A stretch of DNA of 44,153 nt from the IMG/VR virus record IMGVR_UViG_2541047916_000003, one strand, 5' to 3'. Positions 6,990 through 14,670 of this stretch are shown here, in pieces; positions within the stretch are counted from its first letter, which is position 1; each line of letters begins with the position of its first letter. Source of the DNA: a virus (lineage: Duplodnaviria > Heunggongvirae > Uroviricota > Caudoviricetes). A model generated the notes under the pieces. It searched no databases and was not told the DNA's origin. It saw nothing but the letters and a program-made list of their open reading frames with translations. The position numbers were made by a program, and so were the translations under genes.

Positions 6990-7286
6990 TTATACCTCTG
7001 AATCAATATCAGCCTGATGGTGAGCAATGGTTTCAACTATGTACCGGATGTGTTCTGCCATGCGCTCCTGAAACTCAACATCGTCATCAAACGCACGGGT
7101 AATGGCTTTTTTGCTGGCCCCGTGGCGTTGTAAATGATCGATGCATAGCGATTCAAACAGGTGCTGGGGCAGGCCTTTTTCCATGTCGTCTGCCAGTTCT
7201 GCCTCTTTCTCTTCACGGGCGATCTGCTGGTAGTGACGCGCCCAGCTCTGAGCCTCAAGACGATCCTGAATGTAATAAGCGTTCAT
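6990..7286 (-). CDS. gam: Gam host-nuclease (RecBCD) inhibitor
   Basis: 98-aa translation matches the short form of lambda Gam as recalled ([21 protein letters not shown]...). Confidence 0.9.
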
Positions 7287-7361
7287 GGCTGAACTCCTGA
7301 AAATGGCTGTGAAAATATCGCCCGCGAAATGCCAGGCTGATTAGGAAAACAGGAAAGGGGG

Positions 7362-7505
7362 TTAGTGAATGCTTTTGCTTGATCTCAGTTTCAGTATTAA
7401 TATCCATTTTTTATAAGCGTCGACGGCCTCACGAAACATCTTTTCATCGCCAATAAAAGTGGCGATAGTGAATTTAGTCTGGATAGCCATAATTGTTTGA
7501 TCCAT
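7362..7505 (-). CDS. kil: Kil host-killing protein (FtsZ inhibitor)
   Basis: 47-aa product from the internal ATG ([47 protein letters not shown]) matches lambda Kil as recalled; overlaps the cIII 3' end. Confidence 0.8.
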
Positions 7506-7638
7506 TTTTTGGGACTCCTGGCTGATTAAGTATGTCGATAAGGCGTTTCCATCCGTCACGTAATTTACGGGTGATTCGTTCAAGTAAAGATTCGGAAGGG
7601 CAGCCAGCAACAGGCCACCCTGCAATGGCATATTGCAT
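7474..7638 (-). CDS. cIII: CIII (FtsH inhibitor, stabilises CII)
   Basis: Hand translation [54 protein letters not shown] matches lambda CIII; 54 aa, below the track threshold. Confidence 0.85.
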   Translation of the reverse strand: MQYAIAGWPVAGCPSESLLERITRKLRDGWKRLIDILNQPGVPKNGSNNYGYPD

Positions 7639-7710
7639 GGTGTGCTCCTTATTTATACATAACGAAAAACGCCTCGAGTGAAGCGTAATTGGTATGCGGT
7701 AACGCCGCGC

Positions 7711-8079
7711 TCAGGCGGCCTTGATAGTCATATCATCTGAATCAAATATTCCTGATGTATCGATATCGGTAATTCTTATTCCTTCACTACCATCCATTGG
7801 AGGCCATCCTTCCTGACCATTTCCATCATTCCAGTCGAACTCACACACAACACCATATGCATTTAAGTCGCTTGAAATTGCTATAAGCAGAGCATGTTGC
7901 GCCAGCATGATTAATACAGCATTTAATACAGAGCCGTGTTTATTGAGTCGGTATTCAGAGTCTGACCAGAAATTATTAATCTGGTGAAGTTTTTCCTCTG
8001 TCATTACGTCATGGTCAATTTCAATTTCTATTGATGCTTTCCAGTCGTAATCAATGATGTATTTTTTGATGTTTGACAT
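7711..8079 (-). CDS. ea10: Ea10 (Ssb-like) early protein
   Basis: 122-aa translation matches lambda Ea10 as recalled; located between cIII and ral. Confidence 0.8.
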   Translation of the reverse strand: MSNIKKYIIDYDWKASIEIEIDHDVMTEEKLHQINNFWSDSEYRLNKHGSVLNAVLIMLAQHALLIAISSDLNAYGVVCEFDWNDGNGQEGWPPMDGSEGIRITDIDTSGIFDSDDMTIKAA

Positions 8080-8098
8080 CTATTCATATCCTCATAGA

Positions 8099-8124
8099 TA
8101 AAAAATCGCCCTCACACTGGAGGG
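8099..8124 (-). terminator. hairpin plus U-tract between ral and ea10 (tL-type terminator candidate)
   Basis: Minus-strand GCCCTC-cagtgt-GAGGGC stem followed by GATTTTTTAT; coordinates approximate. Confidence 0.4.
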
Positions 8125-8261
8125 CAAAGAAGATTTCCAATAATCAGAACAAGTCGGCTCCTGTTTAGTTACGAGCGACATTGCTCCGTGTATTCACTCG
8201 TTGGAATGAATACACAGTGCAGTGTTTATTCTGTTATTTATGCCAAAAATAAAGGCCACTA

Positions 8262-8462
8262 TCAGGCAGCTTTGTTGTTCTGTTTACCAAGTTCTCTGGC
8301 AATCATTGCCGTCGTTCGTATTGCCCATTTATCGACATATTTCCCATCTTCCATTACAGGAAACATTTCTTCAGGCTTAACCATGCATTCCGATTGCAGC
8401 TTGCATCCATTGCATCGTTTGAATTGTCCACACCATTGATTTGTATCAATAGTCGTAGTCAT
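8262..8462 (-). CDS. ral: Ral restriction-alleviation protein
   Basis: 66-aa translation matches lambda Ral as recalled (MTTTIDTNQWCGQFKRCNGCKLQSECMVKPEEMFPVMEDGKYVDKW...). Confidence 0.85.
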   Translation of the reverse strand: MTTTIDTNQWCGQFKRCNGCKLQSECMVKPEEMFPVMEDGKYVDKWAIRTTAMIARELGKQNNKAA

Positions 8463-8532
8463 ACGGATAGTCCTGGTATTGTTCCATCACATCTTGAGGA
8501 TGCTCTTCGAACTCTTCAAATTCTTCTTCCAT
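8446..8532 (-). CDS. 28-aa acidic peptide, lambda orf28-like position
   Basis: Hand-found ORF MEEEFEEFEEHPQDVMEQYQDYPYDYDY whose stop overlaps the ral start. Confidence 0.45.
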   Translation of the reverse strand: MEEEFEEFEEHPQDVMEQYQDYPYDYDY

Positions 8533-8675
8533 ATATCACCTTAAATAGTGGATTGCGGTAGTAAAGATTGTGCCTGTCTTTTAACCACATCAGGCTCGGT
8601 GGTTCTCGTGTACCCCTACAACGAGAAATCGGATAAACTCTATTCACCCCTACAGAGAGCAAAAGAGAAACGCCG

Positions 8676-9257
8676 ATGAACAACTCATGGTGGCAGGAAC
8701 TAATGCATTTTTTCCTGCAAGGAATGACACTTAAACAGTTGATTCATATGCTAATCATCCTGATCATATTGATTATTGTTATGCCGGTAAGCGTAAAAGA
8801 ATGGATAAACCTGCATAGTCCAGAAATCCTTCCTCATTACTGGATGTATTACATCCTGTTGTTTTGCGTTAGCTATGTGCTTAACGGCGTTGTTAATTCC
8901 GCTTATCACGCTGTGACTGAAAGAATTGAGGTATTCGCTGCTCAGAAGCGCAAATCTAAAGAAGAAAAATATGTGCAAGATTTGTTTGATTCGTTAACTC
9001 TTGGAGAAAGAGCGTATTTGGCATTCGCTGTAGCCGCTAATAACCAGCTACAAACGGAAAAGGGCGCTCATGAATCAATTTCATTGCTCAAAAAAGGACT
9101 CCTCGTTCGAAGGCCTCCTGCTGTTGGATATCCTGATACCGACCGTTTCGTTATCCCTGAAAGCTATAGACATGAGTGCTACATTAGGTTTGCCGGGAAG
9201 GCAGACAGCCTTATGGATGAACTTATCGCTCAGGATAAGCATGGCAAAAACAAGTAA
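8676..9257 (+). CDS. sieB: SieB superinfection exclusion protein
   Basis: 193-aa membrane protein; translation matches lambda SieB as recalled; sole plus-strand gene in the pL operon region. Confidence 0.85.
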   Translation: MNNSWWQELMHFFLQGMTLKQLIHMLIILIILIIVMPVSVKEWINLHSPEILPHYWMYYILLFCVSYVLNGVVNSAYHAVTERIEVFAAQKRKSKEEKYVQDLFDSLTLGERAYLAFAVAANNQLQTEKGAHESISLLKKGLLVRRPPAVGYPDTDRFVIPESYRHECYIRFAGKADSLMDELIAQDKHGKNK

Positions 9258-9273
9258 TTAGCAAATGAATTTA

Positions 9274-9546
9274 TCATCTCGCCGTCAGTTGTTTTGATTT
9301 CCGGTAGCCTGCCGCGTAAAGAGCTACGTTCGGAAGACAAGTTGAACCTTCATATTTTCTGGTCAACGTTGTCAGAGTTATCACTTCTGCTCTCATTGCT
9401 GGTTTGAGCTTGCATTGCAAGACCACTCGTGAAGGGGTTGGCCTGTGTAGCTTGTCGGAGCTGATCGCCTCCTGACTTTGCAGATTTGCGCGACGAGCTC
9501 TACGGCGAGAAGCTGCGGTGCCTTTAAATTCTGTTTTTCTGGACAT
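9274..9546 (-). CDS. N: N-type transcription antiterminator (non-lambda; P22 gene-24-like C-terminus)
   Basis: 90-aa product from ATG at 9546 with GGGAGG ribosome-binding site; arginine-rich motif SRRRARRA near the N-terminus; C-terminal VALYAAGYRKSKQLTAR resembles P22 gp24 as recalled. Confidence 0.7.
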   Translation of the reverse strand: MSRKTEFKGTAASRRRARRANLQSQEAISSDKLHRPTPSRVVLQCKLKPAMRAEVITLTTLTRKYEGSTCLPNVALYAAGYRKSKQLTAR

Positions 9547-9662
9547 GGATTCCTCCCGAATAAACTTTGGCGATGCAATCTCGAAGCTCCTCCTGAGACG
9601 GTTGCTTCGGCATTGCATCCCACAGCTTATGTGGTTGGGTGATCTGGCTTTTCAGCCACGTA

Positions 9663-9690
9663 GTCGAGAGTCGACGTTGTTTAAAGAGCC
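9663..9690 (-). promoter_or_regulatory. nutL candidate (boxA-like GGCTCTTTAAACAACG plus short hairpin)
   Basis: Minus-strand GCTCTTT..AACAACG followed by hairpin GTCGA-CTC-TCGAC; the same boxA-spacer motif occurs after cro. Confidence 0.45.
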
Positions 9691-9730
9691 TGCCAGTCTG
9701 TTCCATTTGGCTTCCAGCGTCCTGCTGACG

Positions 9731-9770
9731 GTTAAATAGTACGATATGTACTTTACAAGATCAATACAAT
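9731..9770 (-). promoter_or_regulatory. pL promoter with OL operator candidate
   Basis: Minus-strand TTGATC-(18)-TATTTA with the operator-like 15-mer AAAGTACATATCGTACT immediately upstream of the -10; same motif found at pR. Confidence 0.4.
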
Positions 9771-9982
9771 TTGTTGTAAGTTGGCGTGGTTTTTTATAAC
9801 GCTTTGTATTTAATAGTGTTGTTTTTTAGCGTGGATGTATTGCCTCGGCGATGTAAGGAGAGATCAGAATTGCGTGGTTTAGTGGGTTGCATCTATTTAT
9901 TTTTCAATAAATATAATTGGTTATGTGTTTTTAGGTGGGCGAACGTGAGGCAAAGAAAACCCGGCGCTGAGGCCGGGTTGTA

Positions 9983-10735
9983 TTATGCTGCAAGTCTCTT
10001 AACCCAAGTCTCTCTTTTGGAGAATGGTAGAACTTGGCTTGATTCATGGAAGAGTAAGGAGAGTTGTTGCATTTGATCACCAATTGCTTCGCTGTCTATA
10101 ACAACAAATCTGTTGTTATACTCCTCACTTGAAGCTTTAAGATCAATTAGTTTCCCAAGCAATGAGTAAGCACTATTCCAGCTTCCTCCGTGTTTCACGC
10201 TTGATGTAAAAACGTATTTAGGTATGTCGGTTTTTATTGTTACAGGGACGGTAATTTGATGTCCACTCAAGCCATATACGTTTTCACGAAGAGAAAGTGC
10301 GTCTCTAAGCTCTGTGTGATATAGATAATCAATAACCATACTTTCAAACTTTTCAGCTTGAACTGGCTGATACCAGTCTAACGACAAAGTTGATGCGAGT
10401 ATACCAGCTCTAATTATGTTCGATGTAATCGCACCGACATCCTTTTCTGTTGCCCAAGCAATGATTTCTCCTCGAGCATTGAGTTCTGCGCCTTCTTTAA
10501 GCAGTAATTGTCGTATCTCATCAAGTCGTTTTTTGGTAAGCGAGATCCCTCTTGCCTCCATATTCATTAAGGCATCGCATCTGTCACTAACTAAATACCT
10601 ACCATTGACTTCACGGATAAAGGCACCGACATGCTCTCCATCATCACAGTAAGTGAATGGACTGATAATTCTCAAGGTCTTGCCTATTGGATGGCATTCG
10701 AAACCTAGTTGTGAGATCACTGTTGAGCACATCAT
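9983..10735 (-). CDS. uncharacterized protein (250 aa), distal gene of a two-gene cassette in the rexAB position
   Basis: ORF on the cI strand; start ATGATG overlaps the stop of the upstream 185-aa gene; AT-rich; no family recognised. Confidence 0.7.
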   Translation of the reverse strand: MMCSTVISQLGFECHPIGKTLRIISPFTYCDDGEHVGAFIREVNGRYLVSDRCDALMNMEARGISLTKKRLDEIRQLLLKEGAELNARGEIIAWATEKDVGAITSNIIRAGILASTLSLDWYQPVQAEKFESMVIDYLYHTELRDALSLRENVYGLSGHQITVPVTIKTDIPKYVFTSSVKHGGSWNSAYSLLGKLIDLKASSEEYNNRFVVIDSEAIGDQMQQLSLLFHESSQVLPFSKRETWVKRLAA

Positions 10736-11289
10736 ATTCCAAACCCCATTTGCCCCGACTCATCTTCAAGCGGTAAAGGTATTCTCCCAGAGTAAGTTAT
10801 GTTCAGATGTTTACAGAAGTAATTCCAATACCCTACCAGGTCATCTGGGTTTATGTCATCTTCGATTGGAAACGCTATTCTATCACTATAGTATCCAGCT
10901 TCTTCATAGTATACATGGTAGTGAGCACCGTAAATGATATCTTGGTACTTCGGATGATCGACCTTGTAACTATTCGTGTGTTTGTCAAAGTGATAGGTAT
11001 CTACCGCGAAAACCCTCTTGTTATGATAGAAAGCAATAATATTTATTTTAGGGTAAGAAATCGGGTCATCAGGTTCTGAATCCTGATCTGGTTTCCATTT
11101 CAGTTCAAACTTTAGCCCTTGTATAGGTATACAATCCTCATCCAAGGGGATGATATGGGCTTGTAGCCACATATCAGAGCGACTTGGTTTCTGTTTCCAT
11201 TTAACGCCAGAAAAGTTAACTATTTTTTTACAATAAAGTACTTTATCAACTTCTACTTGGCTTGGCTGATAATCATCTATTTTTGCCAA
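10732..11289 (-). CDS. uncharacterized acidic, aromatic-rich protein (185 aa), proximal gene of the rex-position cassette
   Basis: ORF begins about 40 nt downstream of the cI stop on the same strand; Tyr/Trp/His- and Asp/Glu-rich; no TM segment; no family recognised. Confidence 0.7.
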   Translation of the reverse strand: MAKIDDYQPSQVEVDKVLYCKKIVNFSGVKWKQKPSRSDMWLQAHIIPLDEDCIPIQGLKFELKWKPDQDSEPDDPISYPKINIIAFYHNKRVFAVDTYHFDKHTNSYKVDHPKYQDIIYGAHYHVYYEEAGYYSDRIAFPIEDDINPDDLVGYWNYFCKHLNITYSGRIPLPLEDESGQMGFGI

Positions 11290-11328
11290 TGTTTACCGCC
11301 CTGTAAATTGTAGATAAAAGTGGTTTCA

Positions 11329-11988
11329 TCACCCAAACGTCTCTTCAGGCCATTGGCTGGCGATAACTTTCCCCACAACGGAACAACTCTCATTGCATGG
11401 GATCATTGGGTATTGTGGGTTTAGTGGCTGTAGAAACACCTGACCGCTATCCCTGATCAGTTTCTTGAAGGTAAATTCATCACCACCAAGTCTGGCTATG
11501 CAGAAATCGCCGGGCTCAACAGCTTGCTCAGGGTCAACCAGAATTAACATCCCGTCAGGAAAGCTGGGTTTGGAACCTGTTGGTGCGGTCATTGAGTTAC
11601 CTTCAACCTCAAGCCAGAATGCAGAGTCACTGGCTTTTTTGGTTGTGCTTACCAATCTCTCCGCATCGCCTTTGGTAAAGGTTCTGAGTTCTGGAGAGAA
11701 CATCCCAGCCTGAACATGAGAAAAAACAGGGTACTCATATTGTTTTTTAACTGGGGCCGATGAGTATTCGCCAACAGGTGAAAATGTCCCGTCGTGGTTG
11801 AATGATATGTTATCAATACCAAGGTATTTAAACACCACACCAATATCACTAAGAGATGGATGACGAGATCCGCGCAACCAGTGTCCAATCCCACCCTGCG
11901 TCATACCTAGCTCTTCGGCTAACTTCTCTTGAGTTATGCCGAGCTCTTTCATTCTGGATCTAGCCAGTTCATACCATTTCATTTTCAT
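11329..11988 (-). CDS. cI: CI prophage repressor (heterologous HTH N-domain, lambda-type S24 autocleavage C-domain)
   Basis: C-terminal ~130 aa match the lambda cI C-domain as recalled (..[29 protein letters not shown]..); N-terminal HTH differs from lambda; ATG at 11988 preceded by AAGGA. Confidence 0.85.
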
Positions 11989-11995
11989 GTCCTTA

Positions 11996-12069
11996 TTATT
12001 ACGCTCTGTACTGGAACCATCCATGCACAATGTGTATTTTTACTTGTATTCGCAAAGTACATATTGTAT
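11996..12069. promoter_or_regulatory. OR operator region with divergent pRM and pR
   Basis: pR candidate TTGTAT-(17)-TATTTT with operator-like AAAGTACATATTGTATT in the spacer; a second related copy AGTACAGAGCGTAAT lies next to the cI start. Confidence 0.45.
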
Positions 12070-12099
12070 TTTTTTATTCGTGTTTACTATGGAGGGCAT

Positions 12100-12315
12100 A
12101 TGAGCAACCTACGAAAATATCGAGAGTCACTGAATATCTCTCAAACAACACTTGCTAAGGCAGTTGGATGCACACAGGGAGCTATCGGACATTGGGAATC
12201 TGGTCGTCGCTTCCCAGACCTTAAAACATGCCGTGCTCTTGTTGCGTGCCTAAACAAGTTAGGCGCAAAAGTCAGTCTTGATGACGTGTTCCCGCCGGAA
12301 CACAAAGCCGCTTAA
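12100..12315 (+). CDS. cro: Cro-type repressor (XRE-family HTH)
   Basis: 71-aa product from ATG at 12100 with GGAGGG ribosome-binding site; recognition helix TQGAIGHW parallels TQGGIGHW in cI. Confidence 0.8.
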   Translation: MSNLRKYRESLNISQTTLAKAVGCTQGAIGHWESGRRFPDLKTCRALVACLNKLGAKVSLDDVFPPEHKAA

Positions 12316-12325
12316 TAAGCGGATC

Positions 12326-12353
12326 CGCTCTTTGTAACAACGGACATTCGTCC
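12326..12353 (+). promoter_or_regulatory. nutR candidate (boxA-like CGCTCTTTGTAACAACG plus short hairpin)
   Basis: Directly after the cro stop; hairpin GGAC-ATTC-GTCC follows the conserved AACAACG; a second GAAA-loop hairpin lies at about 12358-12371. Confidence 0.45.
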
Positions 12354-12456
12354 TACGTCGCTGAAAAGCGAGTTCCAAGATATCTGACCAACTAAGGCCA
12401 TATGCGTTTCCACGCATACCTTTCAACTAACTATTCACTATTGGAAATCTTAAGAA

Positions 12457-12753
12457 ATGGAAAGAACAAGTTACAGCAAACTATCACAGCGTGACGTTGA
12501 TCGCGCAGAAACAGATTTACTTATCAATCTGTCAGCTATTACCCAGCGCGGTCTGGCAAAGATGATTGGCTGTCATGAATCGAAGATAAGCAGAACGGAC
12601 TGGAGATTTATTGCTTCGGTCTTGTGTGCTTTCGGAATGGCATCAGACATCAGTCCGATTAGCAGGGCTTTTAAGTATGCGCTTGATGGACTCACCAATA
12701 AAAAACGCCCGGCGGCAACCGAGCGTTCTGAACAAATCCAGATGGAATTCTGA
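12457..12753 (+). CDS. cII: CII transcriptional activator (heterologous N-terminus, lambda-type C-terminus)
   Basis: 98-aa ORF ending ..TNKKRPAATERSEQIQMEF as lambda CII; N-terminal DNA-binding part differs from lambda. Confidence 0.85.
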   Translation: MERTSYSKLSQRDVDRAETDLLINLSAITQRGLAKMIGCHESKISRTDWRFIASVLCAFGMASDISPISRAFKYALDGLTNKKRPAATERSEQIQMEF

Positions 12754-12772
12754 GGTCATTACTGGATCAATC
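12697..12772 (-). ncRNA. oop: oop antisense RNA
   Basis: Minus-strand sequence across the cII 3' end closely matches lambda oop as recalled and ends in the hairpin GCCGCCGGGCG plus TTTTTTATT. Confidence 0.6.
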
Positions 12773-12785
12773 CACAGGAGTCATT

Positions 12786-13685
12786 ATGACAAATACAGCA
12801 AAAATACTCAACTTCTGCAGAGGTAACTTTGCCAAACAGGAGCGTAATGTGGCAGATCTCGATGATGGTTACGCCAGACTATCAAATATGCTGCTTGAGG
12901 CTTATTCAGGCGCAGATCTGACCAAGCGACAGTTTAAAGTGCTGCTTGCCATTCTGCGTAAAACCTATGGATGGAATAAACCAATGGACAGAATCACCGA
13001 TTCTCAACTTAGCGAGATTACAAAGTTACCCGTCAAACGGTGCAATGAAGCCAAGTTAGAACTCGTCAGAATGAATATTATCAAGCAGCAAGGCGGCATG
13101 TTTGGACCAAATAAAAACATCTCAGAATGGTGTATCCCTCAAAACGAGGGAAAATCCCCTAAAACGAGGGATAAAACATCCCTCAAATTGGGGGATTGCT
13201 ATCCCTCAAAACAGGGGGACACAAAAGACACTATTACAAAAGAAAAAAGAAAAGATTATTCGTCAGAGAATTCTGGCGAATCCTCTGACCAGCCAGAAAA
13301 CGACCTTTCTGTGGTGAAACCGGATGCTGCAATTCAGAGCGGCAGCAAGTGGGGGACAGCAGAAGACCTGACCGCCGCAGAATGGATGTTTGACATGGTG
13401 AAGACCATCGCGCCATCAGCCAGAAAACCGAATTTTGCAGGGTGGGCTAACGATATCCGCCTGATGCGTGAACGTGACGGACGTAACCATCGCGACATGT
13501 GTGTACTGTTCCGCTGGGCATGCCAGGACAACTTCTGGTCCGGTAACGTGCTGAGCCCGGCCAAACTCCGCGACAAGTGGACCCAGCTCGAAATCAACCG
13601 TAACAAGCAACAGGCAGGTGTGACAGCCTGCAAACCAAAACTCGACCTGACAAACACTGACTGGATTTACGGGGTGGATTTATGA
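12786..13685 (+). CDS. O: replication initiator O
   Basis: 299-aa translation matches lambda O as recalled; ori iterons lie within the gene. Confidence 0.95.
   Translation: MTNTAKILNFCRGNFAKQERNVADLDDGYARLSNMLLEAYSGADLTKRQFKVLLAILRKTYGWNKPMDRITDSQLSEITKLPVKRCNEAKLELVRMNIIKQQGGMFGPNKNISEWCIPQNEGKSPKTRDKTSLKLGDCYPSKQGDTKDTITKEKRKDYSSENSGESSDQPENDLSVVKPDAAIQSGSKWGTAEDLTAAEWMFDMVKTIAPSARKPNFAGWANDIRLMRERDGRNHRDMCVLFRWACQDNFWSGNVLSPAKLRDKWTQLEINRNKQQAGVTACKPKLDLTNTDWIYGVDL
13134..13219 (+). repeat. ori-lambda-type iterons (four ~18-19 bp repeats) followed by an AT-rich segment
   Basis: ATCCCTCAAAACGAGGGA-like unit repeated four times, then an A-rich tract to about 13260. Confidence 0.8.
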
Positions 13686-14383
13686 AAAACATCGCCGCAC
13701 AGATGGTTAATTTTGACCGTGAGCAGATGCGTCGGATCGCCAACAACATGCCGGAACAGTACGACGAAAAGCCGCAGGTACAGCAGGTAGCGCAGATCAT
13801 CAACGGTGTGTTCAGCCAGTTACTGGCAACTTTCCCGGCGAGTCTGGCTAACCGTGACCAGAACGAACTGAACGAAATCCGCCGCCAGTGGGTTCTGGCT
13901 TTCCGGGAAAACGGGATCACCACAATGGAACAGGTTAACGCAGGAATGCGCGTAGCCCGTCGGCAGAATCGACCATTTCTGCCATCACCCGGGCAGTTTG
14001 TTGCATGGTGCCGGGAAGAAGCATCCGTTATCGCCGGACTGCCAAACGTCAGCGAGCTGGTTGATATGGTTTACGAGTATTGCCGGAAGCGAGGCCTGTA
14101 TCCGGATGCAGAGTCTTATCCGTGGAAATCGAACGCGCACTACTGGCTGGTTACCAACCTGTACCAGAACATGCGGGCCAATGCGCTGACTGACGCGGAA
14201 TTACGACGCAAGGCTGCCGATGAACTGACCTGTATGACAGCGCGAATTAACCGTGGTGAGACGATACCTGAACCAGTAAAACAACTTCCTGTCATGGGCG
14301 GCAGACCTCTAAATCGTGTTCAGGCGCTGGCGAAGATCGCAGAAATTAAAGCTAAGTTAGGACTGAAAGGAGCAAGTGTATGA
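13682..14383 (+). CDS. P: replication protein P (DnaB helicase loader)
   Basis: 233-aa translation matches lambda P as recalled; start overlaps O stop. Confidence 0.95.
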   Translation: MKNIAAQMVNFDREQMRRIANNMPEQYDEKPQVQQVAQIINGVFSQLLATFPASLANRDQNELNEIRRQWVLAFRENGITTMEQVNAGMRVARRQNRPFLPSPGQFVAWCREEASVIAGLPNVSELVDMVYEYCRKRGLYPDAESYPWKSNAHYWLVTNLYQNMRANALTDAELRRKAADELTCMTARINRGETIPEPVKQLPVMGGRPLNRVQALAKIAEIKAKLGLKGASV

Positions 14384-14670
14384 CGGGCAAAGAGGCAATT
14401 ATTCATTACCTGGGGACGCATAATAGCTTCTGTGCGCCGGACGTTGCCGCGCTAACAGGCGCAACAGTAACCAGCATAAATCAGGCCGCGGCTAAAATGG
14501 CACGGGCAGGTCTTCTGGTTATCGAAGGTAAGGTCTGGCGAACGGTGTATTACCGGTTTGCTACCAAGGAAGAACGGGAAGGAAAGATGAGCACGAACCT
14601 GATTTTTAAGGAGTGTCGCCAGAGTGCCACGATGAAACGGATATTGGCGGTATATGGAGTTAAAAGATGA
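14380..14670 (+). CDS. ren: Ren
   Basis: 96-aa translation matches lambda Ren as recalled; start overlaps P stop. Confidence 0.85.
   Translation: MTGKEAIIHYLGTHNSFCAPDVAALTGATVTSINQAAAKMARAGLLVIEGKVWRTVYYRFATKEEREGKMSTNLIFKECRQSATMKRILAVYGVKR

Follow-up and report, generated by a model that had tools for sequence, protein, structure and literature searches.

Positions 9274–12753 of a 44,153-nucleotide (nt) stretch of DNA from a virus of the class Caudoviricetes (IMG/VR record IMGVR_UViG_2541047916_000003; the whole stretch is called the window below) hold the genes N, cI, cro and cII and the control sites between them. We consider it very probable that this region is a standard lambdoid lysis/lysogeny switch that carries the known immunity of VT2-Sakai (Sp5) and other Shiga toxin (Stx) phages within an otherwise lambda-like early region. 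An earlier note, made from the sequence alone, had described a non-lambda immunity region built by recombination within cI and cII, and we did find sharp homology joints with lambda at about 11740, in the cI hinge, and at about 12691, within cII. The Stx1-converting phage AP005153 has identical cI and Cro proteins, and the operators have already been published for VT2-Sakai and AP005153, so the immunity specificity is not new; the observation is confirmed and the feature is already known.

Identity to Escherichia phage PhiR57_1 (PV340572.1; host ECOR13) is 100% across the region, with exactly coincident coordinates, and it is 100% as well for phages PhiR63_2 (host ECOR13), ev017 (RefSeq name Lambda_ev017, genus Jouyvirus) and ev207; a literature search found no paper on PhiR57_1. 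At least 80% of the region is present in 236 of 5426 complete Escherichia coli genomes, carriers include Nissle 1917, ATCC 25922, ATCC 11775, UM146 and NU14, and prophages that are 100% identical to it occur in many complete genomes. N, cI, Cro and cII are already annotated in the matching phage and prophage records.

The repressor and Cro

cI is encoded on the minus strand and consists of an N-terminal DNA-binding domain of the Sakai type (11741–11988; Pfam HTH_3, E = 2e-10) and a lambda-type C-terminal part that contains the hinge cleavage site and the S24 autocleavage and oligomerisation domain (11329–11740; Peptidase_S24, E = 1.3e-28). Over its full length the protein is 100% identical to the cI of AP005153, including the lambda-like C-domain and its W to L change. 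AP005153, the Stx2 phages 1717 and 2851, YYZ-2008 and the PA phages all have an N-domain that is 100% identical to this one; in VT2-Sakai the identity is 98.8%. From EYEYPVF to the C-terminus, this W to L change is the single residue that differs from lambda cI, and the DNA is 93.2% identical to lambda over 11329–11740 versus about 45% in the part encoding the N-domain, in agreement with the earlier description of a lambda-matching C-domain joined to a different N-domain. The cleavage-site motif VQAGMF (Ala-Gly) and the catalytic motifs GNSM (serine) and FKKL (lysine) are identical to those of lambda, and with its helix-turn-helix (HTH) N-domain, S24 Ser/Lys dyad and Ala-Gly site the protein has the domains and motifs of a LexA/lambda-cI type autocleaving repressor. 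The earlier note had further called the N-terminal modules of cI and cII heterologous. This does not hold for either: by sequence comparison the N-domain of cI is an HTH_3 domain distantly homologous to that of lambda and not a heterologous fold, as it matches the lambda repressor N-domain in the PDB (1LLI, E = 4.5e-4), and the cII body is an ordinary one (see below). The cI N-domain is nevertheless far less conserved relative to lambda than the C-domain, with 22% identity to lambda cI in a six-sequence alignment.

The annotated start of cI is the ATG at 12024 (MDGSS...). The real protein probably comprises about 219 residues and begins at MKMKW from the ATG at 11988, because a start at 12024 would put OR2, OR3 and the promoter pRM within the gene, and because cI homologues from four other genera begin at this methionine. 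In lambda, the pRM transcript of cI is leaderless; that of the window probably starts on or close to the ATG at 11988 and may likewise lack a leader. A small RNA, svsR, has been claimed at the cI 3' end of the lambdoid prophage NC-SV of E. coli NC101 (PMC12803456, a 2026 paper); in the window the 3' end of cI lies at 11329–11420.

Cro (71 residues; 12100–12315, plus strand) has the same sequence as its counterparts in AP005153 and VT2-Sakai (100% identity). It had been described as an HTH protein of XRE type unlike lambda Cro, and rightly so: Pfam assigns it an HTH_3 domain (E = 4e-12), and BLASTP gives no alignment between it and lambda Cro, features that place it by sequence among the all-alpha Cro proteins of the 434/P22 type. 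Among solved structures the best match is 28tn_A, described as a 'lambda repressor-like protein' (E = 4.5e-17), the P22 c2 N-domain is a weak PDB match, and the 434 proteins gave no significant PDB match to either Cro or the cI N-domain at E ≤ 0.01. The proposal that cI and Cro have nearly identical recognition helices was borne out. Overall identity between the cI N-domain and Cro is 35%, the best-conserved stretch is helix 3 (QGGIGHWLR in cI and QGAIGHWES in Cro), and TQGAIGHWESG of Cro aligns in register with the matching recognition-helix segment of cI. An all-alpha Cro with the same recognition helix as its own repressor, competing with it for operators, is a textbook concept; the repressor/Cro pairs of 434 and P22 resemble that of the window in their homologous HTH_3 domains, near-identical recognition helices and dyad-symmetric operators, but have other sequences and another operator half-site.

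Operators

Three operators of 17 base pairs (bp) were identified in each control region. On the plus strand, OR3 (TATTACGCTCTGTACTG, 11997–12013), OR2 (ATGCACAATGTGTATTT, 12023–12039) and OR1 (AAGTACATATTGTATTT, 12055–12071) are the same as in AP005153 and VT2-Sakai, as is OL1 (AAGTACATATCGTACTA, 9737–9753) on the minus strand. On that strand also lie OL2 (TACAACAAATTGTATTG, 9762–9778), a one-base variant of the AP005153/VT2-Sakai OL2, and OL3 (AAATACAAAGCGTTATA, 9795–9811), a one-base variant of the AP005153 OL3. The GenBank record of AP005153 lists six putative 17-bp operators, three each at OR and OL, along with pR, pRM and a pL equivalent by OL1. Supplementary Table S1 of a 2023 paper (PMC10742460) gives OR1–3, OL1 and OL2 as VT2-Sakai operators; OR1–3 and OL1 of that table are identical to those of the window, and OL2 differs by one base. 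Sakai-type operators are cited after Fattah et al. 2000 (PMC4587872). With the same cI DNA-binding domain, the same Cro and the same operators, OL2 and OL3 as one-base variants, the switch is of the VT2-Sakai/Stx-phage type.

A 15-mer shared by the pL and pR spacers had been placed at about 9742–9756 and 12055–12069. We found it to be exact and to lie within pL and pR, with its positions one or two bases away, at 9740–9754 (minus strand) and 12054–12068; on comparison with the published sites it is the core of the VT2-Sakai OL1 and OR1. By our own estimate, a 14-of-15 match between two regions of about 100 bp would be expected by chance about 1e-3 times. The dyad consensus derived from all six operators is A-n-TACA-n3-TGTA-n-T. 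Each control region holds three matches with at most two mismatches, versus about 0.11 expected in shuffled sequences, and OR1 is the sole perfect match within the 44-kb window. Measured centre to centre in bp, the sites are spaced OR3-26-OR2-32-OR1 and, mirrored, OL1-25-OL2-33-OL3.

As this excess is partly circular, we examined distant relatives for independent support, namely the repressor/Cro pairs of Salmonella SPN9CC, Erwinia Midgardsormr38, Vibrio H8 and Klebsiella ST340-VIM1phi10.1. The cI N-domain of each is 44–52% identical to that of the window, and the cI–cro spacers are otherwise unrelated. The core TAC(A/G)-n3-TGTA nonetheless occurs at three sites in each of the four. In the scan the spacing was 26/32 in the Erwinia and Vibrio phages and 25/33 in the Klebsiella phage; in SPN9CC a spacing of 27/32 is obtained only with a middle site chosen by eye, which has four mismatches. 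OR1 and OR2 of the Erwinia phage have three mismatches each, and only one of its sites passes the two-mismatch test. The recognition helices of cI and Cro in these relatives retain T-(Q/K/R)-(G/S)-x-x-x-H-(W/Y). The four pairs thus share with the window the N-domain family, the H-(W/Y) of the helix, the operator core and the three-site layout, but come from other hosts and carry helix substitutions (Q to K, G to S or A) that may alter specificity.

A search of the whole window with the consensus returned five additional sites with one mismatch (7913, 8209, 8836, 8848 and 20702). Those at 7913 and 8209 were rejected as operators, as the DNA there is 98% identical to lambda and the sites are present in lambda itself. 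Within sieB, which is not of lambda origin, overlapping operator-like near-consensus sites (ATTACTGGATGTATT and ATTACATCCTGTTGT) lie at 8836–8862; the sites at 8836 and 8848 span a perfect palindrome, GGATGTA-T-TACATCC, which may be due to chance or be a real site.

Promoters and the proposed circuit

pL (9736–9764, minus strand) has a -35 hexamer TTGATC (9759–9764), a 17-nt spacer and a -10 hexamer TACTAT (9736–9741), and scores 8/12 to the consensus. AP005153 annotates a promoter near OL in the same place (-10 TACTAT), the label of which, 'maintenance promoter for CI', is apparently mistaken. pR (12044–12072, plus strand; -35 TTGTAT at 12044–12049, 17-nt spacer, -10 TATTTT at 12067–12072) is where AP005153 annotates it, is a weak match to the consensus, and stands in the same register relative to its O1 site as does pL. 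A candidate pRM, mapped from the AP005153 annotation, lies at 11996–12023 on the minus strand (-35 TGGATG at 12018–12023, 16-nt spacer, -10 TAATAA at 11996–12001). A sigma-70 scan with a threshold of 9/12 missed pL, pR and pRM, all of which score below it, and the scanning recovered pO and the terminators of oop and of the cI operon.

The identities, domains, sites, conservation and geometry described here are read directly from the sequence, and we infer binding, repression, activation and cleavage from the lambda paradigm. Dimers of cI would bind the three 17-bp dyad-symmetric operators at OR and the three at OL. Since OR1 covers the spacer and -10 of pR, and OL1 those of pL, bound cI would, by analogy, block both promoters. 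Relative to the ATG at 11988, the centre of OR2 lies 43 bp upstream, which resembles the placement of lambda OR2 at pRM, and cI bound there could activate pRM; the overlap of OR3 with the pRM -10 (TAATAA) would give negative autoregulation. Cro would compete for the same operators through its near-identical recognition helix. Because the cI C-domain is one residue from that of lambda, cooperative binding and RecA-stimulated self-cleavage are expected, and the latter would induce the prophage. N with the boxB elements of nutL and nutR, cII with pRE, and the oop RNA would complete the circuit. As a weaker possibility, a cI with the lambda oligomerisation domain might form mixed oligomers with lambda cI, and so couple two heteroimmune prophages.

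Joints with lambda and comparison with known immunity regions

The window is 98% identical to lambda over 7000–8655 (part of bet, gam, kil, cIII, ea10 and ral) and unrelated to it over 8656–9857 (sieB, N, nutL, pL and OL). A lambda-like island on the minus strand (9858–9980) carries the intrinsic terminator at the end of the cI operon (stem 9958–9979), and 9981–11328, again unrelated to lambda, holds a two-gene cassette in the place of rexAB. The cI C-domain segment is followed by a further unrelated stretch at 11741–12690 (cI N-domain, OR, cro, nutR and cII body), and from 12691 onward, through the cII tail, oop and pO, identity to lambda is 97.2%; O and P downstream are lambda-like at the protein level.

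Compared with lambda, the segment for the cI C-domain carries 28 nucleotide differences but only one amino-acid change, from which we conclude that the hinge joint is old and that the segment is under purifying selection. In cII (98 residues; 12457–12753, plus strand; Pfam Phage_CII PF05269, E = 7e-34), the earlier note had seen a second protein hybrid, with the C-terminus of lambda on a different N-terminus. The last 19 residues (TNKKRPAATERSEQIQMEF; 80–98) are indeed exactly those of lambda, with the remainder about 30–40% identical. The body (residues 1–79), however, is of the Sakai type and, judged by homology, is that of an ordinary, genuine cII, and the joint falls at the U-tail of the oop terminator; the 19 lambda-type codons are those overlapped by oop. 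As the joint lies at the oop 3' end, the lambda tail is most simply a by-product of the overlap between the oop-pO-O-P module and the 3' end of cII, and the joint appears to mark the border of the lambda replication module and not an exchange of protein domains. The mosaic as a whole would have arisen by recombination between lambdoid modules, the cI hinge joint being old and common to Stx phages and the cII/oop joint specific to the lineage with lambda O and P.

Outside the cassette, the immunity regions of VT2-Sakai (Sp5), AP005153, 1717, 2851 and Nil2 are about 96% identical in DNA to the window. These Stx phages differ from it in their replication genes and in the last 19 residues of cII, both annotated as HK022-like, where the window has lambda-type O, P and cII tail; the cII of the window is 86% identical to that of VT2-Sakai/AP005153, from which it differs in the tail. 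The cargo between cI and OL also differs. Lambda, in turn, shares with the window its gene order, switch architecture, cI C-domain and terminator island after the cI operon, as well as the cII tail, oop/pO, O and P, but differs in the fold class of Cro, in N, the nut sites and the cI N-domain, and in having rexAB. Its operators are of the TATCACCGC type versus TACA-n3-TGTA in the window, and its OR1–OR2 spacing is 24 bp versus 32 bp. The repressor of the O104:H4 Stx2 phage BAA2326 is 61% identical overall to lambda cI (Chakraborty et al. 2018, PMC5977221), and its footprinted operators (e.g. ATAACTGTGCGTAATG) are unrelated to those of the window; this repressor shows that lambda-like repressors of other operator specificity are common.

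Alternative explanations

The sharp joints with lambda inside cI and cII, together with a cII body/tail combination unlike that of the Stx phages, could be taken to mean that the region has a new immunity specificity, made recently by recombination in these two genes and equipped with an unrecognised operator motif. We regard this as very improbable, as database phages with annotated operators have cI and Cro proteins 100% identical to those of the window and the motif is the published OR1/OL1 core. The DNA for the cI C-domain, at only 93% identity to lambda and with almost all of its changes silent, points to an old joint in cI, and the cII tail is no part of DNA-binding specificity. By the account in the earlier note, the proposal would fall if cI and Cro proved identical to a known immunity type with operators other than the motif; identity to a known type is what we found, and the operators of that phage are the motif itself. 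The interpretation in the earlier note is partly supported, being right in outline and imprecise on folds, on the similarity of N and on the cII joint.

Equally improbable is the view that the 15-mer is a duplicated or parallel stretch of promoter sequence and not a repressor site. It occupies the same register in pL and pR, and binding of the cognate cI at the motif is proposed by analogy; a promoter sequence would not, however, account for its dyad symmetry, for three copies per control region of which some (OR2, OR3 and OL3) lie away from pR and pL, for a recognition helix common to cI and Cro, or for a core and spacing kept in four other genera despite differing promoters. The notion that the region has decayed and survives in a cryptic prophage without function, to which we give the least credence, draws on the report of Bury et al. 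(PMC5987069), who were unable to induce prophage 3 of Nissle 1917 and termed it defective. Against it stand the intact state of all genes, the presence of the identical region in database entries submitted as Escherichia phages (ev017, ev207, PhiR57_1 and PhiR63_2), and the purifying selection evident in the cI C-domain from 28 nucleotide changes versus one amino-acid change.

Several points weigh against a functional lambdoid switch of the VT2-Sakai type, the explanation we favour. Operator binding, repression and induction are all argued from analogy, the AP005153 operators are labelled 'putative', and a paper that uses these operators tested lambda cI and not the cognate repressor. pR and pRM are poor matches to the sigma-70 consensus and went unseen by the scan, and the operator consensus was derived from the same six sites that it was then used to count. 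Finally, the Nissle prophage was reported to be non-inducible (Bury et al., PMC5987069), so not every copy need be active.

N, nut sites, pRE and oop

N (90 residues; 9274–9546, minus strand) contains an N_peptide domain (Pfam, E = 1.5e-32). A resemblance to P22 gene 24 had been proposed, which is true of the last 24 residues (67–90; 79%), to which the similarity is confined; over its full length N is nearer to that of VT2-Sakai/1717 (98.9% identical), with about 41% identity to HK97/933W N. By sequence and folding, nutL lies between pL and N (9645–9690, minus strand) and consists of a boxA-like GGCTCTTTAAAC (9679–9690) and a boxB hairpin UGGCU-GAAA-AGCCA (9645–9658), and nutR (12326–12371, plus strand) of boxA CGCTCTTTG (from 12326) and boxB UCGCU-GAAA-AGCGA (12358–12371). 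The N_peptide domain and two boxB hairpins, each preceded by a boxA-like sequence, are the features of an N antitermination system. Each boxB is a stem of 5 bp closed by a GAAA loop, versus the five-base loop of lambda, and the two stems differ by a compensated G-C/C-G pair (UGGCU/AGCCA versus UCGCU/AGCGA).

A candidate pRE -35 region, TTGC-N6-TTGT, lies on the minus strand at 12466–12479, in the position of the TTGC-N6-TTGC of lambda at the start of cII, and is followed by a candidate -10, TAAGAT. TTGC-N6-TTGY is not more frequent in the window than expected by chance (5 occurrences versus 6.25 expected), so that it is the position that argues for this pRE. The gene for the antisense RNA oop (12695–12811, minus strand) was recovered by the promoter/terminator scan, with pO at 12783–12811, a terminator stem at 12702–12729 and a U-tail extending to about 12695, and has a fold z-score of -3.2. 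An Rfam scan of 8000–14500 (E ≤ 1) gave only chance-level matches and no oop or nut family.

Bury et al. (2018, PMC5987069) reported about 200-fold lower plating of lambda and stx phages with the 'phage repressor (pr)' of Nissle 1917. The primers with which pr was cloned and quantified map to 12411–12780 of the window, an amplicon that holds only cII and no cI; the reported drop in plating was therefore obtained with cII, and the Nissle 'phage repressor' that was studied is actually cII.

A two-gene cassette in place of rexAB

The cassette (9983–11289, minus strand) is possibly the only new item within the region. Gene A, in the rexA position, encodes 185 residues from a TTG start (10732–11289), and its stop overlaps the start of gene B (ATGA), which encodes a DUF1828 protein of 250 residues in the rexB position (9983–10735). 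The cassette starts 39 nt past the cI stop, without a terminator between them, and ends at the lambda-like terminator. Lambda rexAB is co-transcribed with cI from pRM, and by analogy the A/B pair would be co-transcribed with cI in the same way.

Both genes fall in PHROG families of unknown function. They match the PADLOC candidate PDC-M24 weakly, gene A partially (E = 4.8e-4) and gene B over its full length (E = 4.7e-10), in the order A then B with overlapping stop and start; to our knowledge, PDC-M24 is a candidate system that has not been validated. Gene A has a conserved H-x-H-x-Y-Y-E motif, and no solved structural relative was found for it; gene B has a YbjN/chaperone-like N-domain and a C-domain of the restriction-endonuclease-like fold with candidate nuclease residues. 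Homologues of the cassette occur across Enterobacterales and in Aeromonas. In prophages of Aeromonas caviae and Xenorhabdus hominickii the A/B pair lies directly downstream of a repressor with HTH_3 and S24 domains, on the same strand; these repressors are unrelated cI-type proteins, and the neighbouring genes differ. As a lead and not a result, the cassette fits an exclusion or defence role expressed in the lysogen. That it is an uncharacterised, repressor-linked anti-phage system is a tentative proposal which we hold to be somewhat less probable than its opposite, and the cassette is a reasonable candidate for defence-system screening.

Implications

The repressor, Cro and operators were annotated in Stx phage genomes some twenty years ago, and the region is an instance of textbook lambdoid mosaicism that carries little weight as a discovery. 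The operator core and spacing conserved across genera provide a firmer operator model for the family than the 'putative' annotation. Nissle 1917, ATCC 25922 and ATCC 11775, all widely used strains, carry the same immunity type and should therefore resist Sakai-type Stx phages via cI.

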